Assembly: GCA_040006935.1 (NCBI GenBank)
Contig: JBDTVZ010000001.1
Span: 231,772-295,771, forward strand
Reading direction: 5' to 3'
Length of the DNA stretch: 64,000 nt
Origin: Candidatus Dojkabacteria bacterium
Lineage (GTDB): Bacteria; Patescibacteriota; Dojkabacteria; J137
How positions within the stretch are numbered: the stretch's first letter is position 1; the number at the start of each line of letters is the position of its first letter. A program made the translations under genes and the position numbers. The notes beneath the pieces were generated by a model. That model saw nothing but the letters and a program-made list of their open reading frames with translations, was not told the origin of the DNA and searched no databases. Of this stretch, positions 14,141-63,302 are shown in pieces.

Positions 14141-14195
14141 TATAAGTAAATTTTGTCATTCTCTCGTAGAAAATGTCAAAATCTGTATTGCGGTA
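14141..14195 (+). promoter_or_regulatory. Conserved upstream motif copy 2 (TTGTCA ... AAAATGTCAAAATCTGTATTGCGGTACAAT)
   Basis: About 31 of 35 nt identical to 2846..2880, about 60 nt upstream of the 14254 start. Confidence 0.35.
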
Positions 14196-26669: not shown

Positions 26670-26915
26670 GGAAGAGAAAATAAAAAGTATATATACATAC
26701 TACCAGTTTCCTGACAGGAATGGAACATTTCCCTTAAACTGACATTATGCACTGTGACCTATACCCCATAACTTTAGTTATTAAATGATAACTTTAATGA
26801 GTCCTGATTTTCAGGACGATTATTAGATTTATGTTGGCTTTAGCACGCCACTGATTATCTCTTGAATATATGTTTGTGGAGTTACTCAACTTTCCTCTCA
26901 ATATAAACACTTAAC

Positions 26916-26982
26916 TCCCTCCTTGCCTGCCTTGCCTGTCGGCAGACACGGTCGGCAGGCATGAACGTCAGGCAGGTTGATA
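26916..26982. repeat. GC-rich intergenic island with GTCGGCAGGCA / GTCAGGCAGG direct repeats (repeat family member R1)
   Basis: GC-rich segment just 3' of the giant gene. It shares CGGCAGGCA-type cores with 42815..42875 and 63110..63130. Confidence 0.4.
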
Positions 26983-26993
26983 ACGTTTAATTG

Positions 26994-29900
26994 TTACTCA
27001 ATCCACCAATCCAACCAAACACTTGCACCTCCACTTAATTCTCGATACTCAACTTTAATGGTGTGAAGACCAGCAGTCATATTTAATGTTGCATCATCTT
27101 CCTCATATCCATGAGGTCCCCAATGATCTATTGCGAGAGTTCCGTCAATCCAGACTCTTACCCCATCATCGCTACCTTCCATAAATGTATATGTGTCTGC
27201 ATCAAAGTAGAATTGTCCCTCATATCGAGCAGAGAAGTTGTTACTACTAATTCCACTGATTGGTGAGTTCGATCCCCAATCATAATCAACATTCGATGTG
27301 TACATAGACATTGTTGGTGTTCCTGTTAATGTTGCATTATTAAAGTATTTTGCACAGAACCTTCCAACGTCCACACAATTTGATGTTTGAGTTTGAGGAA
27401 GTGTCCAAGATAATCCTGCTGTAGCATCTCCTGTTCCATCGTAATATTCCATTTTGATAGCATGAGCTCCTGCTGTTAATGTAACTGTCGAAGAATTCAT
27501 AGTTGTTGTATGCGATGTCCAATTATTTATTTTTTGAACATTATCTACCCATAACCTAACTCCATTATCTGATGTTGTAACGAACGTATAACTTCCAGCA
27601 GTTGGGAAATTAATATTTCCAGTCCATCTTGCAGAGAAATTATTACTATTTACTGATGCATCGGGACTTCCTCCCCACCAGAAATTAGAAATTGTATCTT
27701 CACATCTTGTTAGAACTGGAGAGCCAGTTAAACCTGTATTGTTATAGTATTGCGCAGTAAATGTACAACTCGCATTGACTTTGAATAGAGCAGATTTGCT
27801 TGCTGTTGCTCCGTGTGAATCTGTTGCTATGAATTCTATATTCTGTTGACCAGTCCAGTTTACTGGTGTTGTTATTGTGACAACATTGCTAGCATTGATA
27901 CTTACAGTTAGCGGTCCATTATTTGCATAGCTCCAAGTGATTGGATCTGCAATATCTGGGTCACTTCCATAATTATCTAAATCGAATGTTGTAAAGCTTT
28001 GCCCTAATACGATTGTTTGTCCTGGAATTGTATTTACAACTGGATCATTATTATCAACAGGTTCAAAGTATTGCCATACTGATGCTCCTCCTCCTATTTC
28101 TCTGTACTCACCTTTTACTTGATGAACACCAGCAGATACGTTTATAGTTTTATAATCCTCTTGGTACCCATGTGGACCCCAAGAGTCTATTACTGCTTGA
28201 TTATCTAGCCAAACTCTTACTCCATCATCAGATGCTGTCCCAAATTCATAAGTTTCTCCTGTGAAAGTAAAGTTTCCTCTCCATCTTAACGAAAATGCGT
28301 CATCGTTAGTTATTCCATGTCCAGGACCCCATTGCTGCCAGTCTGCATCCACACCATTTTGTACTGCTACAAATACTGGACTTCCGGATAGAGTAGAATT
28401 ATTGAAATATTCTACACAGTAGAGATCACTTGGAATAGTATTGCAATTCCCTCCGTACTGATACCATACTAAAGCTACGACAGCATCACCCGTCGCTTCG
28501 TAATATTCCACTTTTACACTATGAATTCCTGAAGTCAATGTTATGTCATAATCATTATTTTCCCATGAGTGACTTGTCCAGTTATCAATTCTTAGTGTGT
28601 TATCTACCCAAACCCTAATTCCATTATCTGAGTTTGTATGGAAAGTGTAATTGCCAGCCGCAAAGTTTATATTCCCTTGGTATCTTGCAGAGAAATTATC
28701 TGCATTAACAGATGGATCCGGACTATCACCATCCCACCAGAAGTTTTGAACAAGACTTTCGCACCTTGTAAGAGCTGGGGTTCCAGTTAAGGTTTGATTG
28801 TTAAAGTATTGTGCAGTGAATTGTCCTGCACATGCGTCCACCACATTATTTACTTTGAATAGCGCAGAACTACTTGCAGTAGCAGCGGAACTATCTGTTG
28901 CTGTAAATGTAACCGATTGTTCGCCCACCCAGTTTGCAGGAGTTGCTACTGTAACTATATTGTTTGAATCGATATTTACAGTTAAAGGTCCGTTATTGCT
29001 ATAGCTCCAAGTTATTGAATCTGCAATATCTGGATCTGTGCCATAAGTATCTAAATCAAATGTTGTAAAATTTTGTCCTAGGGTAACTGTCTGGCTTGGG
29101 ATTTGTGTTACTACCGGTGTACTATTTGCAACTGGAACAAAATATTGCTCTATGATTGCATTTCCACCAATTTCTCGGAATTCACCTTTTACTTTGTGAG
29201 TACCAGAATTTACTCTCATAGTCTTAGCAGTTTCCTGATAACCATGAGGTCCCCAGTCATCTATTACTAATTGATTATCTAACCAAATTCTTGCTCCATC
29301 GTCTGAAATTTCATCAAATTTATATGTTCCAGTGTTAAAACTGAAGTTGCCCGTCCACCTTATAGAGAAACTATCATCATTAGTAATTCCATGTCCTGGT
29401 CCCCATTGTCCCCAGTCAGAATCTACCACTCGTTTTGTAGTTACAAATACAGGGCTTCCGGATAAATCAGAGTTATTGAAGAATTCTATACAATATAGAT
29501 TTGTTGGAACTGAATTACAATTTCCTCCATATTGATACCATGTTAAAGATGCTACTGCATCACCTGTTGCTTCGTAATACTCAACTTTTATATTATGAGT
29601 TCCTGCAGATAAAGTGATGTCGTAATCATTGTTTTCCCAAGAGTGACTTGTCCAATTATCAATTCCTAGAGCTCCATCAATCCAAACTCTAATTCCATTG
29701 TCTGAGTTTGTATGGAATGTGTAATTACCAGCAGCAAAGTTTATATTTCCTATCCATCTTGTCGAAAAATTATCTGCATTTACTGTTGCATCAGGACTTG
29801 TTGTTCCCCACCAGAAATTATCGATAACATCTTCACACCTTGTAAGAACCGGTGCATTAGTTAAAGTTTGATTGTTAAAGTATTGTGCAGTGAATTGCCC

Positions 29901-32900
29901 TACGCAAGCATCCGTGCTAACTGTGAAGGTTGCTGTACTATTTGCAGATGCATTTGCAGCATCAGTTAAAGTAAACATTATTGATTGAGATCCTGTCCAG
30001 CCATTTGGAATTGTTATAGTTACAACTTTTTGAGTATCAATATTTACACCCAAAGAACCGTTTCCTGAATATGACCAAGTTAGTGTATCGCCAGCATCTT
30101 GATCGCTTCCATAATTATCCAAATCAAATGTTGTAAAGTTCTGTCCTGTTGAAATTGTCTGACCAGGAATTTGACTTACTGTTGGTGGATTATTTGGCGG
30201 TGTATTAACTGTAAATACTGCCGTCGAACTTGCATTGGCGCTTAAATTATCTGTGGCTTTAAAAGTAATATTCTCCGTTCCAGTCCAATTACTTGGATAG
30301 GTTAGAGTAGCTACATTATTTACAATTGAAATTGAAATATTTGTATTTCCAGAGTAACTCCAAGTTACTGAATCTCCTGCATCCTGATCACTTCCATACG
30401 AACTCAAATTAATTGTTGAGAAATTTTGACCTCTAGTAATAGTTTGATTTGGAAGTTGATTTACAACGGGTGCGTGATTTGCATTTAGTAAATCAATTTG
30501 CAATTTTGCTTTTGCCCCACCTGCATTTTCAAAGTATTCCATTTTAACCTCATGTACGCCTGCTGTAAGAGTTTTAGATCCTGCATATGGAGTCTGACCA
30601 TCTTGATCAATCCATCTATCAACAACTAAAGTACCATCAACCCACAATCGTGTTCCATCATCTGTCCATGTCGTGAAGTTATAATTCCCTCCTGCTGCAA
30701 AGTTTATATTTCCTGTCCAACGAATAGAGAAGTTATCTTGTGGACACTCAATTTGATTTGTAATTGCTACAGGATTTAATGTTCCAGTTACTGAATTACA
30801 ATAGGTAATGAATATTCTTCCTAAGCCGCCTTGTCCACCGCCTCCAGAAGGTCCATTTTGATTTCCACCGTTTCCTCCGAGTGCTGTAGATAAGTTTGAT
30901 CCAAGATTAAAAATACTTCCATGTAGAATTATAGTTCCTGCGGCACCTCCACCTCCACCACCAACGTGGCTTCCAGCATTGTTCCCGCCACTTCCATCCG
31001 CATTAATTTTACCTTGAAGATTAATTACATTAGCATATCCAAATAGAATTCCTCCTCCATTTCCACCATTATTTCCATTTATTGTTGTGATATTTCTTCC
31101 TTGATACCCACCGCTAGCTCCACCACCAGAACCAAATAATACTGAAGATTGATCATTTACACCAATACTTGATCCTCCACCACCTCCACCTGTTCCAACA
31201 TCCGGACTATTCCATGAGTATCCTCCAGTTCCAGTATATCCTAATGCTTGAGAACCACCGTTAGAACCGGCAACCGAAACTCCTCCTCCATTTCCACCAC
31301 CTACTGTACTTCCGGCTAATCCTCCTGGCTGTCCATTTACATTACTATCGGATCCACCTCCGCCTCCACCTCCTGCTGTAGCATTTGCACCACCACCTCC
31401 TCCACCTGTTCCTTCATCACCTTGGCCTGAATTTAAGAAGTCATATCCTCCGGATCCAGCTCCTCCTGATCTTAAACCTGCAGGAGATGTTGCACCATTT
31501 CCAGAACCACTTCCACCTCCGTATGAACCAGTTCCATTTGGAGAATTACCTCCTCTTCCAACAAATCCATCTGTAGACTCACCATTAATCCCTCCTAGAT
31601 TTACTCCCACACCAACTCCTCCTCTGTAACCCTTACCTTTTAGGTCAATTATTCCTAAAGTTCCCACATTTACTGTGCCGTTTGCTTTGAATGCCATAAC
31701 TCCCCCTGTACTTCCATCCCAATTTGCTACAGTGAAGATTCCGTCTATATTAATATTTCTATATTGATTGACTTTTAGAATCTGAGCTACTGAACCACTA
31801 CCCACTGTATAAGTATTATTCAAATTATTTGTTAATGTTAAATTTGTTCCTGAAATACTTGCAACGGTATTGAATTCATACTTTCCCACTCCTGTTCCTA
31901 ACATTTGAATTATTAATATACTATCACCTGCAGTAAATGCACTTGAAGGTGCTCCACTTATAGTAACAATCTTTTGATTTGCAGCAGAAGTCAATGAAAC
32001 TGCACTTCTAACAGTATCTGTATAAACTGTCTGGTTTGTAGAAACACTTAGATCTCCTTCTCTTCCATCTCCTGTTTCGTTTCCTGGAGTTACTAGAGGT
32101 ACTGGACCTCCTCCCGCCCAATCAAAATCAATTGTGTCATCACATGATGTACCTACAGGAGTTCCATTTAACTCTTTATTTGGATAATATTGACCATAAT
32201 ATTGATTAGTTGAACAAGGCCATATTGTAAAGTTTGCACTCTTAGTTGCTTCTGCATGCCAATTGTCAGTTGCTTTAAATGTAATATTTTCTGTACCAGT
32301 CCAATTTGCAGGATAAGTTAAAGTTGCTACGTTATTCGTAATAGAAACTCCAATATTAGAATTACCTGAGTAACTCCAAGTTATTGTGTCTCCACTATCC
32401 TGATCACTTCCATAACTAGCTAAATTTATATTTGTAAAAGCTTCACCTGCTCCAATTCGCTGATCCGGAATAGTTGTTATAACAGGTGCATGGTTATTTG
32501 CTGGTTGAACAAAAAATTGTGCTAATGCATTGCCCGTTGCTTCGTAGTATTCCATTTTTACAGTATGTAAGCCAGCAGTTATAGGAGTAGCTTGAGATAA
32601 GTTAACCCCGGCATTATTTATCCATTTATCTATTAATAAATTAGCGTCAACCCAAAGCTTTGTACCATCATCTGTATTTGTCTGGAATATATATGTATTT
32701 GCAGAGAAATTTATATTTCCTGTCCAACGAATAGAGAAGTGATCTTGAAAACAATCCGTTTGAAGTTGTTTTGTTACCTCTAGTGCAGAGCCTGTTATGG
32801 CATCACAATATTCTATCCTTGTTCTACCACCTCCACCATTTCCACCACCTGCTCCTTGCGAAGGTGTTCCTGGTCCTCCATTCCCGCCATTTACTAATAA

Positions 32901-35900
32901 TTTATTTGTTTCAATATTTGCAGATTTTGTTTTAAGAACTATAGTTCCACCTGCACCTGCGCCTCCACCTCCTGCTAAGTTGTAGCCTCCACCTTGTGCT
33001 GAAGCACCATTACCACCTACCGAAGTTATTTGCCCTGTAATATTTAAAACATTTGCATCTATTAAAATTGCTCCTCCACCATTACCTCCAGCTCCACTAT
33101 CTGTTCCATCTTGGCCTGCTCCTCCACTTCCACCACCTCCACCAAAGTACAATTTTTCTACTTCGTTAGTTCCATAAGTTTTTCCTGGTCCTCCATTACA
33201 CCATCCATCTGATGAAGGTGATAAGCCTCCACCTCCATCTGTTTTATTTCCACCACCTCCACCTCCGGAAGCATGTTTATTTGAGTCCCAAACATAAACA
33301 TATCCATGTCCTGGACCCCCACCGTTTGCATTTGAATCATCATTTTGCCAACAATCAACAATGTTATTATTGTAATTTCCTAAATATCCTTCTCCTGCGT
33401 GTCCTCTGTCTGGATTATTTTCTGTTGTTCTGGAACCTCCTCTATATCCTTTTCCATCAACTCCTATGTCACCAACTACTGTAACAGTTCCTGTGGCTTT
33501 TATAGCTACTATTCCACCAGTTTGACCATCCCAATTATGAGCAGTTAAATGACCATTCACAGTTAGATTATGGTATTGTGCTACTTTTACAAATTGAACA
33601 ATATCACTACCACTCACTGTATATGTATTTGCTAAAGGTGAAGTTAATGTAACTGTGTTTCCACTAATACTTTGAATAATTCCATATTCATATGTTCCAG
33701 TAGAACTTCCAACCATTGAAACTATTATTAACCTATCTCCTTTATCTAATTGATTCATTGAATTCAATTTTATTTGATTAGATCCACTTGTTGCTGTTTC
33801 TGTTAAGTTTCCACGAATATCATCTGTATATATTGTTTGAGTTGAATCTATCGTCAAATCTGGCAAACCTTGAGCTACTGGGCCTAAATTTCCCCAATCA
33901 TAATCAATATTACTTACACAATTAGTAAATTCTTCACCTCCACTTAAAGTAGAATTTCCATAATATTGCATCGCGTACTGTCCTGTTGGACATGCTACGT
34001 TTACATTAATAGATGCGCTTGCACTTCCACCTGTATTTTGAACAGTTACTGAAATTGTTTGGCTTCCCAAGCTTCTTAAATTATAGGTAGCACTTGCAGT
34101 TGATTGTCCTCCAACTGGAGTAGGTGACCAATTGTAAGTTAAGTTTGAAGCGTCCGATGGACTTGCTAAAGCAGTGAATGTATTATTTTCGTTTACATTT
34201 ATTTGATTAGATCCACTTATATATACTTGAACAGGCGCAACATCTTGAACTCTAAAACTGCCTTGAGCACTCCATCCGGAGTCACCCATTGGTGTCCAAG
34301 ATCTTACATGCCAATAATATGGATTAGCTGACGCTGTTAGATCTGTTCTTGTCCATGCACTCGAATCGATCCATCCGGAACCTTGCATCGTTCCATTAGG
34401 AATATTTCCTCCCCATACATCTACTGTGTACCTATCTCCATTTCCAGTCCAAGTCATAACTACTGGTGTTCCAGGAAGGAAACTAGCATTTTCTTGTGGG
34501 GAAAGCGGAGTAGGTGTAACTGAGCCAGGTGGACAGCTGCCTTGGCAAACTTGTATTGACGAAGCTCCATCTCTTAATCCTTGAGCTACAGCATTCAAAT
34601 CTGATACATCATGATTTGTACGTCCGCAAATTCCATGAAAACCACCATCTGAACAGATTATTACTTCATACCCAGAAGTTACTCTTATTGACTCTGTTTT
34701 ATCATTTCTTAGTTCGGAAGGTGTATCCCAGAAACTTAAGTCTGAAATTGTTCTATCGCTAGTGAATGGATTTCCATCGTTGTAATCTCCAAGTCTATAT
34801 AATTTAAATGCTTCTGGACTTCTTCTTCTAACTTGAATTGATGACGTATTATAACCGAAAGGAATTCCTCCTAAATCAGTATTTGTTCCATTTGTTTGAT
34901 ATCTTCTTGCTCCATAGTTATCATCTTCGAATAGAACTACTTCCCAATTTCCTCCAATATCAATAGATTTCAATGTATCGTTTCCAAAACCTTGGGCTCC
35001 TAAACTAGGAATATCTTGAGTAACTAAGAAACAATCTCCTTGATGATCGTTCCAAGAACCTGTAACTCTACAAATTTTAACCCAATCATTATTATTTCCG
35101 GAAGGACATACATTAGTACTATAAACTTTCATAGATTCTACGCTGTTGTACCAACCTCCAACTGTTTCTAAATTTTGTACTGATGAATTGAAACATTGTG
35201 TATTTCCGACCAATCCGATATGCTGATCACTTAAAATTACGGACCAACCTGATGGTATAGACATTGATTTATATTGAGCACCTCTATCTGGGGCTTCAGT
35301 TTCTCCTACTCCAGCTTGTACCCTAATTGATGATGGATCGTAACCAGAATTTCCGTATAGAACTACTTTGTCTCCTGAGTTTCCTCCTCCTCCCGTTCCT
35401 GTTGGGTAACATGCATCTGGAGTTCCTGAAGGTTTTAATTCACAACCGTTATTACATTGTTGAACTACGCTTATACTTCCATTACTACAGTTGAATAGAG
35501 TATTTGAGTCCAAACCTAAAGTACTTCCACAATAATTTCCATTTCCTCCACTTGGACATGTTCCACCACCTGTTGACACTCCTCTACAAACATCAGCTGT
35601 TCCCGGTGGTTTTTGAATACAACCATTCGAACAAGTTTGAGTTTCTGTTTTTACACCATTTTGACAGTTATAAAGTTTGTTAGCAGTTAAACCAAGTGAC
35701 GATCCACAATACATTCCGTTTTGACCATTTGGACAACTGGAAGTACTAGAACCTGTGCTACAGAAGTCCGCTGTTCCTTGGGCCTGAACACTACAACCGT
35801 TAGAACATTGCTGAATAAGACTATTATTCCCATTTGTACATTGATAAAGATTTGAATCGTTAATACCCAATGTGACTCCACAATATTTGCCATTTTGATT

Positions 35901-37973
35901 ATTAGGACATGTATTAGAAGATACTGGAGGGGTACATGCGGTTAAAGCTTCTAAACTAAGACCAGTAGCTTGTGCACTACAAACACCACCATCCAGTGTT
36001 ATATTTAATTGATTAGATGTATTATAATTTACGAATAAGTGACCATACCCATATACTCCATTACTTACTGCAACAAAATCTCTTCCACCTGGATATATAC
36101 TTCCCGAAAAATTAAACGTTCCATTATAATTTATTGGTACTGATATAGAAACTGGTTGATTTCCTGTAGAAAGATAAACATAACCACTTCTTGCTACAGC
36201 GCCTGAAGCATTTGGTAGAAATACATATCCGGCAACAGAGCCATAAACTTGACCATCTAACTTAAACTCACCTGCGAATTGAGTTGAAGATCCAGGGCTT
36301 GTTGCGAATTCATGATGTTGTATCAAATTTTCAATAGCAGGTTGTCCATTATAAGTCTGATCAAGGTCTTTATATAAAGACATATGTGCATGACAATTAC
36401 TTGTACCTGAATTTCCAACTTCCCCTAGTTTTTGACCATAAGTAACACTATCCCCATCTGAAACCACTCTTAAATTAAGATGCGCTACTCTCAAGGCAAT
36501 ATTAGGATTTTCACTTGAACGAACAATGATTGTATTTCCATAACCCGAGTTCGAGAAATATGAAGCTATAACAATTCCTGCGAAGGGGGAATTAAAGTTT
36601 TGATTGCAGTCATTTGCACCATTGATCCTATTCCAATCTTCTGCCAACTCATCTGCCCCATGATGAGTATCTGTACTGTGGCCATTACCTGTTAGTGCCC
36701 AATCTAAAGTATCAAAAGGCCAAAACATATGTATAGGGCTAGAATTTAAATCTACAGCTTGTTGCGAAAAAACGATATTACTAGTTTGACTTGTAGACTC
36801 ATTGCTATTTCCATTAGTTGATGGTGTATTCGTCCCAATCTCCTTATTACCACCAAAAGCAACGACTTTCCCATCAAGATTCACTGTTTGTCCTAATGCA
36901 ATATCTAAAGCATAAATTCCTGCAACTTGTGGCGCTGCAAAGCTTGTTCCAGAAACCAATCCATAAGTTCCATCAACTTTAGTTGTTAAAATATCTCTTC
37001 CTGGTGCATAAATATCAATTTGAGGTCCGTAAGTAGAAAAGCTTGATCTTTGAAGGCTCTGATCAATAGAACCGACTGCGATTGAATTTTCATAAGCTGC
37101 TGGGTAGAGCACTCCTTCTTGTCCAGTATTTCCTGCTGCAGCAACTACTATTACGTTTTTAGATTTTGCATAATTTACAGCATTTTCTAAAAGAGTAGAG
37201 GTATTAGAGCCTCCCAAACTTAAGTTAATTACTTTTGCTTCGTGATCGGCTGCATAAACAATTGCGGCAGCAACATTTGAATAACTTCCTAATCCTTGGC
37301 TATCTAAAACCTTTAATGGCATTATTTTTACATTTGGAGCAATTCCTGCAATTCCAATGTTGTTATTTATATTAGCTGCAATTATTCCAGCAACACTACA
37401 CCCATGTCCTAAATCATCATTTACATTACTTGAATTATCAATAAAATTCTTTCCATCTATTATTTTTCCTTGTAAGTCTGGATGGTTTGCACAAACTCCA
37501 CTATCAATTACTGCTACTTTTACTTCTAATTGGCTTTGCTCAGTTGTCATTGAATCCCAAACTGATTGTACATTCATTGTAGATAATGCCCATTGTTCTG
37601 AATAACTTGGATCGTTTGGTGTACTTAAAGCTGCTGCATAGTAATCAGGTTCCTGTGCTGCAACAATTGTAGATTCTGGTAAGGCTGTATTATTTGAATC
37701 TAAATTAACAACAACGGAATTCAAATTTGCGATTTCACTTACTACAGTTGCGCCAATAGATTTAATGTATGCCTGTTTCTCCTCATCAGTAGCACCTGGT
37801 TTGAAATTCACAACTACTTGGTTTGGTACAGGATCTTTTGGAATTACGACATTAGAAAGATTCTCAGATTCGGAAGACTTTTTTATATATGTATAAACCA
37901 AAGAAAACACCGACACCACCAATGTGAGAGTTAGGATGAATAACGCATACCGTGACTCTTTGAATGTTTTCAT
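26994..37973 (-). CDS. Giant secreted multidomain protein with I9 propeptide, S8 subtilisin, M23 peptidase, Cys-rich repeats, ~10 PA14-like domains, cadherin-like domains and two Gly-rich beta-solenoid-like modules
   Basis: 3659-aa uninterrupted ORF with an N-terminal signal anchor. S8 triad candidates: VAVIDSGV, HGCSVAGI, GTSFAAPQVAG. M23 motifs: HHGAD, VAHLN, CHAHMS. Four CPNGQNGxYCG...C repeats. Repeated PA14-like units of the form FTAQYFNN...NFSARWTGNINF...SDNGIRVWVD. NHAPV...WSYSGN cadherin-like units. GKGYRGG followed by GGGG-rich runs. Confidence 0.85.
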   Translation of the reverse strand: MKTFKESRYALFILTLTLVVSVFSLVYTYIKKSSESENLSNVVIPKDPVPNQVVVNFKPGATDEEKQAYIKSIGATVVSEIANLNSVVVNLDSNNTALPESTIVAAQEPDYYAAALSTPNDPSYSEQWALSTMNVQSVWDSMTTEQSQLEVKVAVIDSGVCANHPDLQGKIIDGKNFIDNSSNVNDDLGHGCSVAGIIAANINNNIGIAGIAPNVKIMPLKVLDSQGLGSYSNVAAAIVYAADHEAKVINLSLGGSNTSTLLENAVNYAKSKNVIVVAAAGNTGQEGVLYPAAYENSIAVGSIDQSLQRSSFSTYGPQIDIYAPGRDILTTKVDGTYGLVSGTSFAAPQVAGIYALDIALGQTVNLDGKVVAFGGNKEIGTNTPSTNGNSNESTSQTSNIVFSQQAVDLNSSPIHMFWPFDTLDWALTGNGHSTDTHHGADELAEDWNRINGANDCNQNFNSPFAGIVIASYFSNSGYGNTIIVRSSENPNIALRVAHLNLRVVSDGDSVTYGQKLGEVGNSGTSNCHAHMSLYKDLDQTYNGQPAIENLIQHHEFATSPGSSTQFAGEFKLDGQVYGSVAGYVFLPNASGAVARSGYVYLSTGNQPVSISVPINYNGTFNFSGSIYPGGRDFVAVSNGVYGYGHLFVNYNTSNQLNITLDGGVCSAQATGLSLEALTACTPPVSSNTCPNNQNGKYCGVTLGINDSNLYQCTNGNNSLIQQCSNGCSVQAQGTADFCSTGSSTSSCPNGQNGMYCGSSLGLTANKLYNCQNGVKTETQTCSNGCIQKPPGTADVCRGVSTGGGTCPSGGNGNYCGSTLGLDSNTLFNCSNGSISVVQQCNNGCELKPSGTPDACYPTGTGGGGNSGDKVVLYGNSGYDPSSIRVQAGVGETEAPDRGAQYKSMSIPSGWSVILSDQHIGLVGNTQCFNSSVQNLETVGGWYNSVESMKVYSTNVCPSGNNNDWVKICRVTGSWNDHQGDCFLVTQDIPSLGAQGFGNDTLKSIDIGGNWEVVLFEDDNYGARRYQTNGTNTDLGGIPFGYNTSSIQVRRRSPEAFKLYRLGDYNDGNPFTSDRTISDLSFWDTPSELRNDKTESIRVTSGYEVIICSDGGFHGICGRTNHDVSDLNAVAQGLRDGASSIQVCQGSCPPGSVTPTPLSPQENASFLPGTPVVMTWTGNGDRYTVDVWGGNIPNGTMQGSGWIDSSAWTRTDLTASANPYYWHVRSWTPMGDSGWSAQGSFRVQDVAPVQVYISGSNQINVNENNTFTALASPSDASNLTYNWSPTPVGGQSTASATYNLRSLGSQTISVTVQNTGGSASASINVNVACPTGQYAMQYYGNSTLSGGEEFTNCVSNIDYDWGNLGPVAQGLPDLTIDSTQTIYTDDIRGNLTETATSGSNQIKLNSMNQLDKGDRLIIVSMVGSSTGTYEYGIIQSISGNTVTLTSPLANTYTVSGSDIVQFVKVAQYHNLTVNGHLTAHNWDGQTGGIVAIKATGTVTVVGDIGVDGKGYRGGSRTTENNPDRGHAGEGYLGNYNNNIVDCWQNDDSNANGGGPGHGYVYVWDSNKHASGGGGGGNKTDGGGGLSPSSDGWCNGGPGKTYGTNEVEKLYFGGGGGSGGAGQDGTDSGAGGNGGGAILIDANVLNITGQITSVGGNGASAQGGGYNLAGGGGAGAGGTIVLKTKSANIETNKLLVNGGNGGPGTPSQGAGGGNGGGGRTRIEYCDAITGSALEVTKQLQTDCFQDHFSIRWTGNINFSANTYIFQTNTDDGTKLWVDANLLIDKWINNAGVNLSQATPITAGLHTVKMEYYEATGNALAQFFVQPANNHAPVITTIPDQRIGAGEAFTNINLASYGSDQDSGDTITWSYSGNSNIGVSITNNVATLTYPANWTGTENITFKATDNWHAEATKSANFTIWPCSTNQYYGQYYPNKELNGTPVGTSCDDTIDFDWAGGGPVPLVTPGNETGDGREGDLSVSTNQTVYTDTVRSAVSLTSAANQKIVTISGAPSSAFTAGDSILIIQMLGTGVGKYEFNTVASISGTNLTLTNNLNNTYTVGSGSVAQILKVNQYRNINIDGIFTVANWDGSTGGVMAFKANGTVNVGTLGIIDLKGKGYRGGVGVGVNLGGINGESTDGFVGRGGNSPNGTGSYGGGSGSGNGATSPAGLRSGGAGSGGYDFLNSGQGDEGTGGGGGGANATAGGGGGGGSDSNVNGQPGGLAGSTVGGGNGGGVSVAGSNGGSQALGYTGTGGYSWNSPDVGTGGGGGGSSIGVNDQSSVLFGSGGGASGGYQGRNITTINGNNGGNGGGILFGYANVINLQGKINADGSGGNNAGSHVGGGGGGAAGTIILHGSIFNLGSNLSTALGGNGGNQNGPSGGGGQGGLGRIFITYCNSVTGTLNPVAITNQIECPQDNFSIRWTGNINFAAGGNYNFTTWTDDGTRLWVDGTLVVDRWIDQDGQTPYAGSKTLTAGVHEVKMEYFENAGGAKAKLQIDLLNANHAPVVNQLPNQTITRGQNFSTINLSSYGSDQDAGDSVTWSYSGNTNISISIVNNVATLTYPSNWTGTENITFKATDNLSANASSTAVFTVNTPPNNPPTVSQIPGQTISTGQNFTTFDLDNYGSDQDAGDTLTWSYSGNGSLGVNIDTQKVVTITIPNGWTGSQSIMFTLTDAANASANSTATFTVSTDACVGQFTAQYFNNQTLTNAPVLTRCEDVIDNFWWGTTSPDATVNADNFSTRWIGNINFAAGNYTFHTNSDNGIRVWIDGALGIDNWTSHSWENNDYDITLSAGTHNIKVEYYEATGDAVASLTWYQYGGNCNSVPTNLYCIEFFNNSDLSGSPVFVTTKRVVDSDWGQWGPGHGITNDDSFSIRWTGNFSFNTGTYKFDEISDDGARIWLDNQLVIDDWGPHGYQETAKTMRVNSGTHKVKGEFREIGGNAIIEQYFVPVANSTPVVTQIPSQTVTLGQNFTTFDLDTYGTDPDIADSITWSYSNNGPLTVNIDSNNIVTVATPANWVGEQSVTFTATDSSAATASSSALFKVNNVVDACAGQFTAQYFNNQTLTGTPALTRCESLVQNFWWDGDSPDPSVNADNFSARYQGNINFAAGNYTFHTNSDNGIRVWVDNTLRIDNWTSHSWENNDYDITLTSGIHSVKVEYYEATGDAVVALVWYQYGGNCNTIPSDLYCVEYFNNSTLSGSPVFVAVQNGVDADWQQWGPGHGITNDDAFSLRWRGNFTFTGETYEFGTASDDGVRVWLDNQAVIDSWGPHGYQEDYKTINVSAGVHQVKGEYREIGGGASVWQYFEPVDNNDPVVNTIPGQTIVLGQSFTTFDLDNYGSDPDIADPITWSYANNGPLTVSINASNVVTITTPVNWTGQQNIEFIATDSHGATASKSALFKVNASCTFTAQYYNNTGLTGSPVLTRCEDTISNFWWGGSPDASVNSNNFSARWTGNINFPTAGSYTFVTTSDNGVRLWVDNVQKINNWTSHTTTMNSSTVTLTAGAHAIKMEYYDGTGDATAGLSWTLPQTQTSNCVDVGRFCAKYFNNATLTGTPTMSMYTSNVDYDWGSNSPISGISSNNFSARYEGQFYFDADTYTFMEGSDDGVRVWIDGTLAIDHWGPHGYEEDDATLNMTAGLHTIKVEYRELSGGASVWLDWWIE
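36369..36731 (-). other. Peptidase M23 (LytM-like) domain of the giant protein with intact Zn-binding motifs
   Basis: HHGAD (HxxxD), AHL and CHAHM (HxH) at aa ~437-531. Confidence 0.6.
36894..37601 (-). other. Peptidase S8 (subtilisin) catalytic domain of the giant protein
   Basis: Asp, His and Ser motifs are intact at aa ~157, ~190 and ~343. Confidence 0.7.
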
Positions 37974-44699: not shown

Positions 44700-44735
44700 A
44701 AGAGTTCCGGGGATTATTCTTCGGAACTCTTTTCT
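44700..44735. terminator. Bidirectional hairpin terminator
   Basis: AAGAGTTCCG-loop-CGGAACTCTT followed by TTTCT. Confidence 0.5.
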
Positions 44736-48883: not shown

Positions 48884-49942
48884 TCAAGAATTCTTTTCAA
48901 TTACAATATATTTCCTTAAAGAATTTATTAACTCACTGCTCAAGGAGATATTTCGGGTAAGCATTTTCTTATTTTTATTTGAACCAAAAATTACTTTTAA
49001 CGGGATATCGCCAGGGTTTTCCCTAATTATATCTCTAATTCTCAATATTTCTTCGGCTTCTATAACATTTATTAAATTAATTATGAGTTCTGTAAAGGCA
49101 ATAAAATCATTCGTTTTCTTTTTCAATATTTCCTTTTCCGAAATTCTCCGCTCAAGCCTTTGAATATCTATTTCTGCAGGAAGTTGTTCAGGAAAGATTC
49201 CTTTTTCGTTTAGTAATTTACGAACCGAGAAGTTATTCTCTTTATGTTCTGCTTTGATATTTGGTTTTGTTCTGAGATCTTTAGATAAAGTATTAAAGGT
49301 TGTAATTTCAGTGGCAAGATCCTTTGCTTTTATAGTAATTGTAGGTAAATGGTCAGCTAACGAACCAGTTTTTATATTTAATTTATTCTTTATAACTCTT
49401 GTGGGCATATTAAATAAGGCTTGGTCCCCAACCGATCTAACCTCAGCTATATCACTACTTGTTAGTCCCTTTGAAGACAGCACGCCTGAGAATTTCTTTT
49501 CGGTTTCTTTTAATTTTCTTCTGGCTTTGATTCTCTCTATAATATGGCTCTTTTCTGTTTCCAGTTCTCGTTTTCGTGTTTGAGTGGCAAAATATGATTG
49601 TGCTAGTGCTATGGTTTCCTTTCTTGGATCACCATTTTGAGCTATAAGATAACATGCATATCTCGTTAACTTATAATCTACTGTTGGTCTCATTGCTTCA
49701 TTAGATCTTCCAGCGGCAATCTTAGACATTTTCGTGACCTCACGAAAATGTCCTTCAATTTGTGGATAGATTTTTAACATTGAAGTTTGTGCTTTTTTTA
49801 TGACTTTATGAAAACTTTCCCAAGTCTCGTACCCAAGCGTACTCATCAATTCTCTTGCGTACCAATATTCTTCATCCGCACCGTTTAGATGTTTTATACT
49901 ATCAAAAGTTCCAAATTTTGTGGTATTTATTTTATTTTCCAA
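48884..49942 (-). CDS. dinD: DNA-damage-inducible protein D (DinD) family
   Basis: YWYARELMSTLGYETWESFHKVIKKAQ and LTRYACYLIAQNGDPRKETIALAQSYFATQTRKRE parallel E. coli DinD. Confidence 0.65.
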   Translation of the reverse strand: MENKINTTKFGTFDSIKHLNGADEEYWYARELMSTLGYETWESFHKVIKKAQTSMLKIYPQIEGHFREVTKMSKIAAGRSNEAMRPTVDYKLTRYACYLIAQNGDPRKETIALAQSYFATQTRKRELETEKSHIIERIKARRKLKETEKKFSGVLSSKGLTSSDIAEVRSVGDQALFNMPTRVIKNKLNIKTGSLADHLPTITIKAKDLATEITTFNTLSKDLRTKPNIKAEHKENNFSVRKLLNEKGIFPEQLPAEIDIQRLERRISEKEILKKKTNDFIAFTELIINLINVIEAEEILRIRDIIRENPGDIPLKVIFGSNKNKKMLTRNISLSSELINSLRKYIVIEKNS

Positions 49943-50055
49943 TTGAGAAAATATGAAGTAGTTGTTAGTAGATCTTAGCAGTTGAACTCTTTTATTGTCA
50001 AATATATTATCCTGAATTGGGATTTTACTTACGGACTACTTATACAATATTATTC

Positions 50056-50130
50056 CTACCGCACCGAAAGCACGCTATAGCTTTTGTGCGGTCCATAGGG
50101 AATTGATAATTAGCTGTATTGCGAAAGTTC
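50056..50130. repeat. Structured GC-rich repeat (family member R3) with a 12-bp hairpin, CCGCACCGAAAG-loop10-CTTTTGTGCGG
   Basis: Homologous to 57005..57082, with a compensatory A/G-T/C change in the stem. Confidence 0.5.
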
Positions 50131-50171
50131 TGTATGAGATTAGTTCTGGTAAATTTACCTAGAAACAATAA

Positions 50172-51032
50172 CTATTCTACTAACTCAAACAGATTCATTA
50201 GAGTCTCCGCTTTCTGTTGATAAATAGCTTTTTTAGTTAAATCTCCACGAGCATTATTGGCTAAACACTCTGGATCAATATAATTATATCCATTTGGATC
50301 TGGATCTATTACCATACATGCCTGAGCTTCTGCTTCTGAAAAAACATCTGGTGCTTTAAATCTTTGCATGGCTTCTAGAATATCACCATTCTTTTCTGCA
50401 TAAATATACAATGTCATATCAAGCTCTGTAATTGCAGGGAAATTAGCTTGATATCCTCCAATTGTAGGAATTACAATAGCTTTTTCAGTACCAGGATAAT
50501 CCACATTAAAGCTATCTAATTTTGTAAATGCAGCTCCTCCACAGTAATAATAAAATGCCAAGAATGGCACTGATGGGAATGAATACCCTGCAGGATAACT
50601 AGATTCGTTATAACTAAAGATTTCGTCCATTAAACTGATTGCATTATTATAATCAGCAATTTCAGAATCATTTGCAGGTAGTATTTGTCTATTTATTACT
50701 AAAGTTTGAGATCGAATTGCTTCAGGATTATTCTTAATACCATAAATTTCCATTCCTAATTGTCTATCACAACCTTCATCTTCGTATGGTAATAAATCAA
50801 AATTTGCAGGAAATTTTAATCCTAAAGGCTTTTTAGCTACGATTGGTTTAATTTCCGGAATTGATATTGGAGGAGGTGTTACTGCAACGGGTGGGTTAAC
50901 AACATTATTATCTGGTGCTGGTCTTGTTGAAATATAGAATATAACTGCAATCGAGATGCAAAGAAAACATAAAACTAGTAATATTATTGCGATTATTGCT
51001 AAATTTCGTTTTCTTTTTAAGAACTCTGGCAT
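50172..51032 (-). CDS. Membrane-anchored extracellular hypothetical protein
   Basis: Start placed at MPEFLKRKRN followed by a TM helix. The ORF-track extension to 51227 would overlap the upstream GH gene. Confidence 0.4.
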   Translation of the reverse strand: MPEFLKRKRNLAIIAIILLVLCFLCISIAVIFYISTRPAPDNNVVNPPVAVTPPPISIPEIKPIVAKKPLGLKFPANFDLLPYEDEGCDRQLGMEIYGIKNNPEAIRSQTLVINRQILPANDSEIADYNNAISLMDEIFSYNESSYPAGYSFPSVPFLAFYYYCGGAAFTKLDSFNVDYPGTEKAIVIPTIGGYQANFPAITELDMTLYIYAEKNGDILEAMQRFKAPDVFSEAEAQACMVIDPDPNGYNYIDPECLANNARGDLTKKAIYQQKAETLMNLFELVE

Positions 51033-51102
51033 AGAAAATTTATGAAAAAGTATATTTCTTATAGGATATATTAAGTAGTCCAACAGTGCAACGTTTGAGA
51101 AT

Positions 51103-52131
51103 TTAATTAGCTTTAGGAATAGTGACGAGTTCTTCCCAAGATTGAAGAACTTTTTTTGAAATACCACTTGAAGATTTGAGTCCAATAGAACTAAATATTT
51201 CCGAAATTGATTTACTGCCAACATCATTAAAGAATATCCAATTTACAAATACAACTCTTTCTTTTTCTAATTCCTGAGTAAGCCAAATTAAATATTGAGT
51301 CTGCTTGTCTTCGGACCCGACATCTGTTAAACCCGAAATATTTGTACTCGATGGCCAACCTGTTTCTGTAATTGCAATTGGTTTGTTAGAATAATCTCTT
51401 AAAATGGAAAAGTATTGATCAGGAATCGAATCTATAGTTTTATAATCGAAGAAAGGGTAGACAGTAAGACCAATAATATCCATATTCCCTTCGAGTTCTT
51501 TAAAAGTATCCCAACCTTGATTTGATTCTCGTCCAGTTAAATAACCCTTTCCAATTAATGTTTCAAATTGGAATGTTGTGTAAACAGTCAATGTAGGGAA
51601 AGTTTTTTTTAGACTTCCATATATCTGTTTATACGCATTCACAAAATCAACTAGTTCGGGTGATCCGTTTTTAAAATTAAAATTAATTTCATTTCCAACA
51701 CTTAAGTATTTAATTTGTGGATATTTTTTAATTAAATCTGTTACCTTAGTAATATAATCAGATGCTGAATCTTTCCATTTTATATCATCTGAAATACCAA
51801 TAACAACTTCTAATGGTGTTTTTACACTTTGTGCGGATAAATCAACAACTTCTAAATGGTCCACTGTAGTATGTACTCCATATACTTCACTGTGAGAACT
51901 TATATTTGTAAAGAAATCCGATATTTGTTGTGATTGTGAATTAGGGAGTCCTACAGGAGAATATCCGGTAATTCCAACGAAATAGTTTCTTTGACTTATG
52001 GGCAAATCAAATGTTTTTCTAGTAGGAGTAGGTTTATATAATCCTGAAATGAATGAGACTAATCCTATTAATAAGATAATAATGACAATTGTAGGTAAAA
52101 CAAATTTTTTATTTTTAATCAACTTATCCAT
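51103..52131 (-). CDS. Glycoside hydrolase, clan GH-A-like, signal-anchored
   Basis: LSVGNEIN (acid/base NE) and IAITETGWPSS (nucleophile ETGW), as in GH5/GH17/GH26-type enzymes. Confidence 0.5.
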   Translation of the reverse strand: MDKLIKNKKFVLPTIVIIILLIGLVSFISGLYKPTPTRKTFDLPISQRNYFVGITGYSPVGLPNSQSQQISDFFTNISSHSEVYGVHTTVDHLEVVDLSAQSVKTPLEVVIGISDDIKWKDSASDYITKVTDLIKKYPQIKYLSVGNEINFNFKNGSPELVDFVNAYKQIYGSLKKTFPTLTVYTTFQFETLIGKGYLTGRESNQGWDTFKELEGNMDIIGLTVYPFFDYKTIDSIPDQYFSILRDYSNKPIAITETGWPSSTNISGLTDVGSEDKQTQYLIWLTQELEKERVVFVNWIFFNDVGSKSISEIFSSIGLKSSSGISKKVLQSWEELVTIPKAN

Positions 52132-56657: not shown

Positions 56658-56800
56658 AAAATATTTATAAAAGACTATTTCTAACCAATCATATAGTATT
56701 TTGAAAATATGGGCAATGGAGATTAGAATGACAGAGAGATTTTATTTTATGAATTTGAAGTCCTGCTTTTCGGGAGAACGCTCGGCTTGTTTTTATATTA

Positions 56801-56872
56801 TGGATTTGGAGGGATTCGAACCCTCGGCCAATCACTTAAGAGGCGACTGCTCTACCACTGAGCTACAAATCC
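56801..56872 (-). tRNA. tRNA-Lys (anticodon CUU)
   Basis: Cloverleaf GGATTTG/CAAATCC acceptor, GCTC/GAGC D-stem, anticodon loop CTCTTAA, T-arm GAGGG-TTCGAAT-CCCTC. 72 nt, no encoded CCA. Confidence 0.8.
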
Positions 56873-56965
56873 ATTTCTGATTGAACGCTTTTATTGCTCG
56901 AAATATAAGTACATAAAGCGTAGTGAATGATATCATTTGAGTCGAAATATGTCCAGATTGAACGT

Positions 56966-57095
56966 TCCCTCTCCTTTTAAGGAGAGGGTTAGGGTGAGGT
57001 CATACCACACCGAAAGCATTACCTGACTTTTGTGTGGTCCTGATTGAGCTTTGCTAATTAACGGGATTGCAACGAAAATTGCATTACTCAGGAGT
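56966..57095. repeat. Composite GC-rich structured repeat (family member R4) with hairpin CCCTCTCC-TTTTAA-GGAGAGGG, GGTGAGG, 12-bp hairpin CCACACCGAAAG-loop10-CTTTTGTGTGG, and ACGGGATTGCAACGAAA
   Basis: Modules recur at 50056..50130, 58170..58282 and (inverted) 63098..63302. Confidence 0.55.
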
Positions 57096-57155
57096 GATAT
57101 TCTAACTCTTCTCTTTCCTCTGTTCACTTTTCTCTATTTGGTATAGACTATAATT

Positions 57156-57986
57156 ATGAACCCAGATTATTCTCCTCAAAACTTGTTGAAAAGCCTGGTT
57201 GATAAATTCTCCAAGAACGAAGAGGTATTCCTAATAGCAACTTTTGGATCCGCAATTAATAATGAAATGGACGATTATTCCGATGTGGATTTAATTATTT
57301 GCTCAAACGATTTAGCAAAAACTTATAGTGAATATCGCACTATTATAGAGTCAATTTCCCCAATTGTTGCAGTTTCACCATTTTATGCAGATAAACCTAA
57401 TGTTATTAGTGAAGTTATTTATCTAAAGAACTATAGTGCATTTCAAAAATTAGACTTAACAGTAATTCCATATCTGGGATATTTGTCAGACTTTAATCCG
57501 AACGTTTTTATAATGTACGAGAATCAAGTAGTTGATAGAACACTAAAAAGAGGAATTGTTAGAAAAAACAAACCAGCGGAAACTTTAGATTCGTGGATGA
57601 CTAACTATATGGGACTGGTTGTGGGTTTTGTGAAAACGTATAAAAGAAAAAATATGGAAATCTACAGATATTGGGATTTAGTTAAGGATGCGATGATTGT
57701 TTTACTCTTTGAGAAATATAATGGATGGAGTAAACAATTCGACAGGCCACGTTTAACTTCCGCTGAATATAAAGATCTATTCTATAGAAAAATTAGCAAA
57801 AGTGAATTCGATTTACTTTCACAAGTCTTGCCTCAAAGTGGGATTTTGGATATTAAGACTAGTTTTATTGTTTCATTCTTCTTATTTACTGAGCTACTAA
57901 GTATAAAATCTAGCTCGTTAAAAGAGTACATAAATTTAGAATTTCTAGACTACATTCGTGGCTTTATGCAAGAAGAGCTCCAGTAA
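57156..57986 (+). CDS. Nucleotidyltransferase-fold protein (ANT(6)/Lnu-like aminoglycoside/lincosamide nucleotidyltransferase family candidate)
   Basis: The N-terminal ATFGSAINNEMDDYSDVDLII matches the GS...DxD pol-beta NTase motif. The 276-aa length is typical of ANT(6). Confidence 0.4.
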   Translation: MNPDYSPQNLLKSLVDKFSKNEEVFLIATFGSAINNEMDDYSDVDLIICSNDLAKTYSEYRTIIESISPIVAVSPFYADKPNVISEVIYLKNYSAFQKLDLTVIPYLGYLSDFNPNVFIMYENQVVDRTLKRGIVRKNKPAETLDSWMTNYMGLVVGFVKTYKRKNMEIYRYWDLVKDAMIVLLFEKYNGWSKQFDRPRLTSAEYKDLFYRKISKSEFDLLSQVLPQSGILDIKTSFIVSFFLFTELLSIKSSSLKEYINLEFLDYIRGFMQEELQ

Positions 57987-58169
57987 TATATATGACTTTA
58001 CAGCTATAAATCTTAGCGGGTTTACGAGCTTTAGATTTATGTTGGCTTTAGCCCACCGCATTTTTTTGTTTTTGGCAGTTTTATACTGCATGAAGTTACC
58101 TTACTCTTTGATCGGGACAATCTCATAGAAGTTACGAAGTAACTCTTGCTGACAAGATGAACATTTATT

Positions 58170-58282
58170 TTCTCGCAGTGGGAGTTTGAGGGGAAATGTT
58201 TTTGACGTCATTGCGAGCCCGAGTTTAACGAGGGCGTGGCAATGAGGTAAGTTACAGAGTCACGGGATTGCTTCGTCATTTC
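58170..58282. repeat. GC-rich structured repeat (family member R5) abutting the msrA stop
   Basis: GACGTCATTGCGAGCCCGAG...GCGTGGCAATGAGG...GAGTCACGGGATTGCTTCGTCA. Its modules are reverse-complements of those in 63098..63210. Confidence 0.5.
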
Positions 58283-58809
58283 TTCCCATATTTCTCCCCG
58301 AGTTCCTTTCTAAATTTTGCAAGTTTTGGCGCAATTACAATAGAGCAGTAACCTGCATTAGGATTGTTCTTAAAATAATCTTGATGATAATCTTCTGCTG
58401 GATAGAACTTAGTAAAGTCTGTAACTTCAGTAACAATTGGTTTACTAAATACTTTATCCTCATCAATTGCTTTAATTACTTCTTCAGCATCCTTTTTTTG
58501 TTGATCATTATGATAAAAAATCGCAGATCGATATTGAGTTCCAACATCCGCACCTTGTTGATTCAAAGTTGTAGGATCATGAGTTTTTAAAAATATTTCT
58601 AATAACTCTTTGTAGGTTATCACTGATGGGTCAAATTCAAACTGAGTTGCCTCTGCGTGACCAGTAGAACCGAAAGAGACCTCTTCGTAACTTGGATTTT
58701 CCTTAGTTCCACCAGAATAGCCAGACATAACAGGACCAACACCTTTAACATTCTCAAAAATCTCTTCTGTACACCAAAAACAACCTGAAGCAAAAGTAGC
58801 GGTTTCCAT
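58276..58809 (-). CDS. msrA: Peptide methionine sulfoxide reductase MsrA
   Basis: GCFWCTE active-site motif and GYSGG. Conserved throughout. Confidence 0.9.
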   Translation of the reverse strand: METATFASGCFWCTEEIFENVKGVGPVMSGYSGGTKENPSYEEVSFGSTGHAEATQFEFDPSVITYKELLEIFLKTHDPTTLNQQGADVGTQYRSAIFYHNDQQKKDAEEVIKAIDEDKVFSKPIVTEVTDFTKFYPAEDYHQDYFKNNPNAGYCSIVIAPKLAKFRKELGEKYGKK

Positions 58810-58870
58810 ATTTGATAGTTAATAGTTAATAGTTAATAGTTAATAGTTAATAGTTAAAAGTTAAAAGTGA
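58810..58870. repeat. Tandem heptamer repeat (TAGTTAA)x5 plus degenerate copies
   Basis: TAGTTAATAGTTAATAGTTAATAGTTAATAGTTAAAAGTTAAAAGTGAATAGTTAA lies between the msrA start and tRNA-Arg. Confidence 0.7.
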
Positions 58871-58978
58871 ATAGTTAAGAACTCTTTAATTAGTATAAAT
58901 CTTGATGTCAGGATTGACAATAATAATGATATAATTGTCGCAGTTATCAACTGTTAACTCTTAACTTTTTAACTAGTA

Positions 58979-63071: not shown

Positions 63072-63097
63072 AAGTTTTGTATTTAATAGTTATTTTG

Positions 63098-63302
63098 TTG
63101 TCATTGCGACCGTGCCTGCCGTCAGGCAAGGGGAGTGTAACGACGAAGCAATCCCGTGACTCTTGAACTTACGGGATTGCCACGTCCTCATCCCGATGAA
63201 TCGGGACTCGTCCTCGCAATGAGATCTTAAGCCTCACCCCTGACCCTCTCCTAAAGGAGAGGGTGGTTCGATCCGCCCAAGGCGGAGAGAACCGGGAGAG
63301 GC
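63098..63302. repeat. Composite GC-rich structured repeat (family member R6), inverted relative to R4/R5
   Basis: GTCATTGCGACCGTGCCTGCCGTCAGGCAAGG, GAAGCAATCCCGTGACTC, ACGGGATTGCCACGTCCTC and TCCCGA-TGAA-TCGGGA. CCTCACCCCTGACCCTCTCC-TAAA-GGAGAGGGTGG is the reverse complement of the R4 module. Confidence 0.55.

Follow-up and report, generated by a model that had tools for sequence, protein, structure and literature searches.

A two-copy hairpin repeat in intergenic spacers of a Candidatus Dojkabacteria genome, tentatively read as a small interspersed palindromic repeat

In a 64-kb stretch of DNA (hereafter the window) from an uncultured member of Candidatus Dojkabacteria (CPR/Patescibacteria), a short GC-rich hairpin lies in the spacer between a tRNA-Lys gene and a nucleotidyltransferase (NTase) gene, and a closely similar hairpin is found 6,946 bp away. 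The genome has a GC content of ~32%, and the closest relative of the P-type ATPase of the window among representative genomes is that of a Dojkabacteria MAG, with 66% identity. The two copies, designated R4 (beside the tRNA-Lys gene) and R3, raise the question of what kind of element is repeated here. In a preliminary description, either a small structured RNA or a REP/MITE-like element was proposed, mainly on the basis of a base change in one arm which is compensated in the other. Here, we examined the repeat itself, its fold, its neighbouring genes, its occurrence in related loci and public collections, and the other repeats that share its spacers.

The repeat and its fold

The recurrence of the hairpin at about 57005..57037 and 50059..50091 was confirmed: the pattern CCRCACCGAAAG-N10-CTTTTGTGYGG has exact + strand matches at 57005-57037 and at 50059-50091, where chance would give none. 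When up to 3 mismatches were allowed, no further match was obtained in the 64-kb window (0.00 expected, 100 shuffles). The conserved block (TACC...GGTCC) is 38 nt long and thus slightly longer than first reported, and the corresponding pattern TACCRCACCGAAAGCA-N8-NCTTTTGTGYGGTCC matches the two cores listed in Table 1, with 0 matches expected by chance and no third site in the window. Using a covariance model built from the two copies, R3 and R4 scored ~58 bits in a search of the whole window with filters off, and everything else remained at or below 11 bits. Searches of the window with single arms (half-sites) gave no extra intergenic copies but only two chance-level matches, both in coding sequence. 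The two copies are in direct orientation, and the GC content of their cores is 48-55%, compared with ~32% for the genome. Two Logan contigs from the same sample (SRR26386622), L001 and L027, match the window exactly at 56977-58055 and 49750-51361. The range in which the element was originally delimited (56966-57095) contains the R4 hairpin, but it also includes a different repeat at 56967-56999, which is absent at the 50-kb locus.

Table 1 Coordinates of the two copies, of their neighbouring features and of the other two-copy intergenic families in the window.
Feature	Position	Strand	Remark
R4 core TACCACACCGAAAGCA-TTACCTGA-CTTTTGTGTGGTCC	57003..57040	+	covariance model, 57.7 bits
R3 core TACCGCACCGAAAGCA-CGCTATAG-CTTTTGTGCGGTCC	50057..50094	+	covariance model, 58.1 bits
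Possible R4 tail TTGCTAATTAACGGGATTGCAACGAAAATT	57050..57079	+	weak similarity to R3 tail
Possible R3 tail TTGATAATTAGCTGTATTGCGAAAGTT	50102..50129	+	weak similarity to R4 tail
tRNA-Lys(CTT)	56800-56873	-	beside R4
Nucleotidyltransferase (NTase) gene	57156-57986	+	beside R4
Predicted sigma-70-like promoter for tRNA-Lys, TGGACA-17-TATCAT with TG	56927..56955	-	consensus match only
Predicted sigma-70-like promoter for dinD, TTGACA-18-TAAGAT with TG	49972..50001	-	consensus match only
GC-rich hairpin module CCCTCTCC..GGAGAGGGTTAGGGTGAGG (full CCCTCTCCTTTTAAGGAGAGGGTTAGGGTGAGG; also written CCCTCTCC..GGAGAGGGTYAGGGTGAGG)	56967-56999 (+), 63232-63263 (-)		two-copy family
46-nt module	58230-58275 and 63189-63144		two-copy family
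25-nt GCCTGCC/GGCAGGC module	26930-26954 and 63131-63107		two-copy family
Exact 22-nt repeat TTAGATTTATGTTGGCTTTAGC	26823-26844 and 58031-58052		in two spacers
24-nt motif AGAAAATGTCAAAAT(T/C)TGTATTGC	2848-2871 and 14168-14191		intergenic two-copy family

The fold of R3 and R4 consists of an A-U pair, six further pairs, a bulged C and five pairs including one G.U, and both the bulged C and the G.U are the same in the two copies. The element first reported as a 12-bp hairpin is therefore a hairpin of 12 pairs indeed, but its stem is imperfect, with arms of 12 and 11 nt. In the arms and flanks, the two copies differ at only 2 of 30 positions, and these are the two sides of one pair (A-T, or A-U in RNA, versus G-C), so that the A-to-G change in the 5' arm is matched by the T-to-C change in the 3' arm exactly as described before. 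The loops, which were correctly reported to differ at equal length, diverge at 7 of 8 central positions, and the contrast with the arms is strong (Fisher p = 2e-5). The stem-loop can be formed on either strand. For R4, fold energies of -15.9 kcal/mol (+ strand) and -15.3 kcal/mol (- strand) were obtained, and for R3, -22.6 kcal/mol (z -5.06) and -20.0 kcal/mol (z -3.28), respectively; the + strand fold is slightly better because the G.U pair turns into a C.A mismatch on the - strand. When a second shared helix was sought by RNAalifold, none was found on the - strand, and the + strand gave only a weak four-pair stem with no compensatory change. An outer helix formed by the non-homologous flanks appeared in both MFE folds, and it was dropped as covariation evidence because shuffled flanks do equally well (p 0.22-0.26).

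Chance does not explain the repeat, its hairpin or the single compensatory pair, which are all real, and the statement that they do not reflect random GC drift holds. However, to conclude from the covariation that the fold is under selection goes too far, as one pair in two sequences is concerned, and two substitutions among 24 paired positions restore a Watson-Crick pair by chance with a probability of ~1.4%. Template switching during replication can restore pairing in DNA palindromes without selection at the RNA level (PMC8794818). Since the same change can be produced in this way, the compensatory pair alone is no proof of a functional RNA. As evidence for a selected fold, a single covarying pair in two copies is thin, and it is equally compatible with a template-switch mutation and with hairpin-dependent spread or maintenance.

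Outside the core, the similarity between the two copies fades quickly. The downstream sequence that was described as shared (TTGnTAATTAnCnGnATTGC..GAAAnTT) exists as a tail of ~30 nt, located 10-13 nt downstream (Table 1), but it stands only marginally above unrelated AT-rich spacers of the window: the local score is 27, compared with 15.7 +/- 3.1 in shuffles (p ~0.006), and when the two tails were compared with other intergenic 70-mers of the window, an equally high score was reached in 2 of 134 cases. The R4 tail includes the 10-mer ACGGGATTGC, which has other sites at 58262, 63148 (- strand) and 63171. Upstream of the cores, the similarity between R3 and R4 is not significant. A 16-mer, TTGAAC(G/T)CTTTTATTG, is found upstream in both spacers, at distances of 122 and 75 nt from the hairpin (E ~0.05-0.8), and was regarded as a chance match. 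Small ORFs across the hairpins are limited to frames of 17 and 29 codons, neither of which is common to both copies, and a 64-aa - strand ORF at 56933-57127 traverses repeat modules and was taken as spurious.

Genomic setting, related loci and possible roles in transcription

Both copies are strictly intergenic, and they lie in different transcriptional settings, which argue against one gene-specific function. R3 is located in a spacer of 229 nt between two - strand genes arranged tail-to-head, 81 nt past the stop codon of a - strand ORFan (50172-51227) and 117 nt upstream of the start of dinD at 49942 (dinD 48884-49942, - strand). R4 is located in a spacer of 282 nt between divergent genes (head-to-head), 130 nt from the tRNA-Lys gene. 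As for the ORFan beside R3, no homologue but itself was detected in a search of 5.8 billion proteins; the NCBI annotation gives a protein of 286 aa (ABI721_01265), and the longer ORF overlaps the ORF at 51103-52131 by 125 nt.

For comparison, we used ~150 kb of related CPR loci, which include NTase homologues of 62-78% identity (L018, L021 and L022) and dinD homologues of 62-64% identity (L023-L026). The R3/R4 covariance model detected nothing in these ~150 kb, and inspection by eye and with the covariance model found no such hairpin upstream of NTase in L018, L021 and L022 or upstream of dinD in L023-L026. Judged from these sequences, neither of the genes beside R3 and R4 has the hairpin as a conserved cis element, because the homologous loci do not carry it. 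In L021, a relative with 75-86% protein identity, the order tRNA-Lys, NTase, MsrA, tRNA-Arg ... RNase T/GIY-YIG, DsbB, MetRS is kept, and the corresponding spacers are AT-rich and repeat-free. The gene order beside both copies differs from that of the available relatives.

Several other features of these loci were observed. Upstream of NTase, the 20 nt before the start codon (TAGACTRTAWTWA then ATG) are conserved in the window (57135-57158), L018 (126-148) and L021 (1518-1542), and a TATAAT-like box, whose end is 1-2 nt upstream of the ATG, points to a leaderless mRNA or to a start codon that is misplaced. Between NTase and MsrA, L018 and L021 carry a gene of 410-420 aa which is missing in the window, and a 289-nt spacer with three repeat modules (57987-58275) is found in its place. 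In L021 (914-1293), the tRNA-Lys(CTT) gene is directly followed by an 86-aa GIY-YIG ORF, after which the final ~34 nt of the tRNA (GATTGGTCGTGGGTTCGAATCCCACCCAGACCAC) occur again, an arrangement suggestive of the insertion of a small GIY-YIG cassette in the 3' half of the tRNA gene. The tRNA-Lys(CTT) gene of the window has no such insert, and it is inverted relative to the NTase gene.

The search was also extended to public collections. Exact scans in which the covarying pair was left free gave no match in 185,579 GTDB representative genomes, IMG/VR and JGI metagenomes, which suggests that the R3/R4 family is young or narrowly distributed. When a second pair was freed as well, the metagenome scan gave one match in a GC-rich sequence (L028), whose free positions are unpaired and which is not reported by the covariance model, and a viral scan with the inner 17 specified bases gave 52 matches, all at or below 21 bits (compared with 58) and without the outer stem. 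Both results were attributed to chance.

Comparison with Rfam, which was proposed along with the RNA reading, gave no family match, either at gathering thresholds, where only two tRNAs of the whole window pass (Rfam 15), or in any meaningful way at E <= 10 over both loci (for example, UptR with 23 bits versus a threshold of 100). A terminator scan of both loci on both strands found no U-tract and no terminator-like site, although canonical hairpin-plus-T-run terminators are used elsewhere in the window (for example, at 44700-44733), and no + strand promoter was found at a conserved distance from R3 and R4. The lack of an Rfam match and of a shared promoter or U-tract terminator, together with the NTase and dinD spacers of the relatives, which lack the hairpin, argues against the small structured RNA proposed before, and nothing shows the R3/R4 hairpin to be a conserved regulatory RNA. 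We therefore consider it improbable that R3 and R4 represent a riboregulator or a gene for a small structured RNA, transcribed on the + strand, in which the G.U pair would be legitimate. The compensatory pair, the conserved bulge and G.U and the slightly better + strand fold would suit such an RNA, and TTGAAC-17-TATTAT upstream of R3 (49982-50010) and a similar TTGAAC-17-TATAAG readable upstream of R4 (56881-56909) may be taken as its promoters. However, the distances from these putative promoters to the hairpin are unequal (~50 nt versus ~95 nt), the R4 candidate fails the scan criteria, and neither a terminator nor a second shared helix accompanies the hairpin. In addition, conservation is seen neither in the relatives nor in the public collections searched, and at R3 a + strand transcript would run antisense into a gene.

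On the - strand, the hairpin could act in cis within RNA, as a 3'-end stabiliser, a non-canonical terminator or a read-through insulator before the dinD and tRNA-Lys promoters, a role that we regard as possible but unlikely. R3 follows the stop codon of the upstream gene and lies ~57 nt upstream of the -35 hexamer of the predicted dinD promoter (a 10/12 match), R4 lies ~50 nt upstream of the -35 hexamer of the predicted tRNA-Lys promoter (also 10/12), a 9/12 - strand promoter is predicted upstream of R4 at 57126-57099, and the hairpin is stable on this strand too (-15.3 and -20.0 kcal/mol). This role is opposed by the lack of a U-tract on either strand in a genome that uses canonical terminators elsewhere, by the lack of any gene ending upstream of R4 on the - strand, by the poorer fold in which the conserved G.U becomes a C.A mismatch, and by the relatives, which have no such hairpin upstream of dinD or NTase.

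The same predicted promoters would be the targets if the repeat were a protein-binding inverted repeat, namely an operator or upstream site at which a dimeric DNA-binding protein controls dinD and tRNA-Lys on the - strand. Two conserved 12-bp arms with a non-conserved spacer of fixed length are consistent with such a site, and at both loci the centre of the repeat would be ~100-110 nt upstream of the - strand start sites derived from the predicted promoters. We assign this possibility little probability. The arms are asymmetric, and the extra C and the G/T asymmetry are both conserved; an operator would not be expected to change in a mirrored way in its two half-sites; an unrelated 33-nt module lies between site and promoter at R4 only; and no regulator gene is adjacent, while the promoters themselves are consensus matches only.

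Other repeat modules and the search for mobilising genes

All-against-all comparison of the spacers gave six two-copy intergenic families including R3/R4, and four of the five others are GC-rich (Table 1). One of these, the CCCTCTCCTTTTAAGGAGAGGGTTAGGGTGAGG module, ends 3 nt upstream of the R4 core; as the R3 locus does not have this module, it belongs to a repeat mosaic around R4 and lies outside the R3/R4 unit. With the exception of the 24-nt motif family, the families (R3/R4 and the four other GC-rich ones) are combined differently in the spacers, and modules are shared in a mosaic among four of them (26.7-27.0k, 56.9-57.2k, 58.0-58.3k and 63.1-63.3k). None of the five other families was found in the sampled related CPR loci (~150 kb).

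Some of these repeats showed further features. The 24-nt motif runs at 2864-2877 into a perfect 14-nt palindrome, TGTATTGCAATACA, and the motif together with the palindrome looks promoter- or operator-like, upstream of two + strand genes. The independent Logan contig L001 starts within the CCCTCTCC module (56977) and ends 3 nt past the 22-nt repeat (58055), as if the module and the repeat were branch points of the assembly graph. The spacer between DsbB and MetRS (63090-63302) is 213 nt long with a GC content of 53%, compared with 32% for the genome, and consists entirely of nested hairpins (MFE -108.8 kcal/mol, z -7.85). It has modules in common with 58207-58275, 26930-26954 and 56967-56999, its sole Rfam signal is a sub-threshold match to whalefall-1 (20 bits versus a threshold of 37), and its L021 orthologue has an AT-rich 63-aa ORF instead. 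A heptamer tandem tract (ATAGTTA and variants, ~10 units) is located at 58808-58877 between MsrA and tRNA-Arg(TCG).

Among the 51 ORFs of the window with at least 120 aa, no transposase, RAYT, Y1_Tnp, integrase, TnpB or reverse transcriptase was found. Two giant genes are present in the window, one for a 2777-aa RHS/YD-repeat protein with an N-terminal M23 peptidase domain (4167-12500) and the other for a 3659-aa protein with subtilase, M23 and eight PA14 domains (26994-37973), whose DNA contains tandem repeat units of ~1.07 kb.

The direct orientation of the two copies at 6,946 bp, with one of them 130 nt from a tRNA gene, might also point to a relic of recombination, that is, att-like direct repeats or single-strand transposon ends bounding the 6.9-kb segment at 50.1-57.0k by tRNA-Lys, or the remnant of a segmental duplication. 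The gene order at both sites, which differs from that of the available relatives, is consistent with this. The ends of IS200/IS605 elements carry bulged subterminal hairpins in direct orientation, and R3 and R4 recall them. Nevertheless, such a relic is very improbable in our estimation. There is no integrase, TnpA or TnpB inside the segment or nearby, and no overlap exists between the repeat and the tRNA. Of the enclosed genes, the p243-ATPase pair is also conserved in a second Dojkabacteria genome and p187 has a homologue in a third, so the segment is not obviously foreign. Finally, uniform decay of a duplication would not give 2/30 differences in the arms and 7/8 in the loop.

Comparison with known repeats and proposed interpretation

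Of the two options in the preliminary description, the REP/MITE-like one fits the context better than the RNA option, but only in a generic sense, as R3 and R4 have no GT(A/G)G head, no terminal inverted repeats (TIRs) beyond the stem and no target duplication. By the refined definition, a REP has a 5'-terminal GT(A/G)G directly upstream of the palindrome (PMC3686654), whereas the 5' flanks of R3/R4 are CAT/CCT on the + strand and CAGG/ATGG on the - strand. In common with REPs and REPINs, R3 and R4 are short (20-40 nt class), GC-rich, imperfect palindromes in strictly intergenic positions with a loop freer than the stem, and as in BIMEs, they are accompanied by other short motifs in mosaic spacers. 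However, REPs are found in tens to hundreds of copies per genome, mostly as inverted doublets (REPINs), whereas R3 and R4 are singletons in direct orientation, with two copies counted within the 64-kb window. In addition, the window has no RAYT gene, and the host is a CPR bacterium with 32% GC, whereas REP/RAYT systems belong to Proteobacteria and others. MITEs and palindromic mini-elements (Correia/NEMIS, RUP, ERIC and Rickettsia RPE) are likewise non-coding, repeated and hairpin-forming, with presence and absence between related genomes, but they are 100-400 bp long with TIRs and target-site duplications. R3/R4 has a 38-nt core with neither; no MITE-like TIRs are shared around the two loci, and no duplication flanks either core.

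The small dispersed repeats SDR1-8 of Nostocales, which PMC3116915 mentions, are reported by Elhai et al. (2008, Genome Res) to be 21-27 nt long and present in many copies. They resemble R3/R4 as very small hairpin repeats with compensatory changes between copies, which lie beside or nested in other small repeats and heptamer tracts and occur in a narrow lineage with no recognisable transposase. However, they have no sequence similarity to R3/R4 and belong to another phylum, and here two copies are documented. Intrinsic (Rho-independent) terminators are comparable as GC-rich stem-loops in AT-rich spacers, and one copy of the repeat is indeed downstream of a gene, but neither strand of R3 and R4 has a U-tract, the genes beside R4 are divergent, and the two stems share their sequence, unlike independent terminators. 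The integron attC cores R'' (RYYYAAC) and R' (GTTRRRY) are absent, as the arms TACCRCACCGAAAG / CTTTTGTGYGGTCC contain no AAC...GTT, and the window has no integrase gene. The direct orientation and the bulge expected for IS200/IS605 ends are present, but none of the 8 ORFs between the copies encodes a Y1 transposase or TnpB. R3/R4 is thus placed only under the generic kind "short interspersed palindromic repeat"; it resembles the REP, MITE, attC and IS200/IS605 families in form and is a member of none.

We tentatively favour, at somewhat less than even probability, the reading that R3/R4 is a lineage-specific small interspersed palindromic repeat of this Dojkabacteria lineage, and one of several. 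It is supported by the mosaic of other GC-rich modules, one of which adjoins R4 and none of which was found in the relatives sampled. Mosaics of small palindromic repeats of this sort are best known from the REP/BIME elements and from the SDRs of Nostocales. The unit would be a short GC-rich imperfect palindrome with a 38-nt core, possibly extended to ~75 nt by the weakly conserved 3' tail, and it would have spread at the DNA level via insertion or recombination between repeat-bearing spacers. The complementarity of the arms, with the bulge and the compensated pair, may have been kept because the hairpin is recognised by the machinery that spreads or maintains it, or by template-switch repair of the palindrome. 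If transcribed, the repeat would add a stable hairpin to the RNA, which implies no specific regulatory role. To speak of an interspersed repeat family is an extrapolation from two copies counted in 64 kb of a contig of at least 517 kb. Against this reading, it also counts that the window has no mobilising enzyme and that the loci show no target-site duplication, TIRs or REP head. Moreover, the same orientation of both copies, 50-57 nt upstream of predicted - strand promoters, could instead indicate a cis function, and an RNA would account more readily than a DNA palindrome for the G.U pair and the slightly better + strand energies.

A further possibility, which we consider quite unlikely, is a tiny mobile hairpin system specific to CPR bacteria. 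At least five families of GC-rich mini-modules (20-80 nt), with no REP head, TIRs or recognisable transposase, would have recently colonised the spacers of one Dojkabacteria lineage and of none of the sampled relatives, and their spread would depend on an unknown enzyme or on a hairpin intermediate of RNA or ssDNA.

In conclusion, R3/R4 is a real, non-random two-copy hairpin repeat, which is of modest interest unless it forms a sizeable family genome-wide. The genomes of CPR bacteria are small and streamlined, and interspersed repeats are not among their known features. With only two copies, the repeat would be a minor curiosity. If the hairpin and its neighbouring modules are multi-copy across the MAG, they would indicate that very small repeats have recently invaded a reduced genome. 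Such repeats would account for breaks in the assembly of MAGs of this kind and for their spurious small ORFs, and rearrangement sites could be marked by them.
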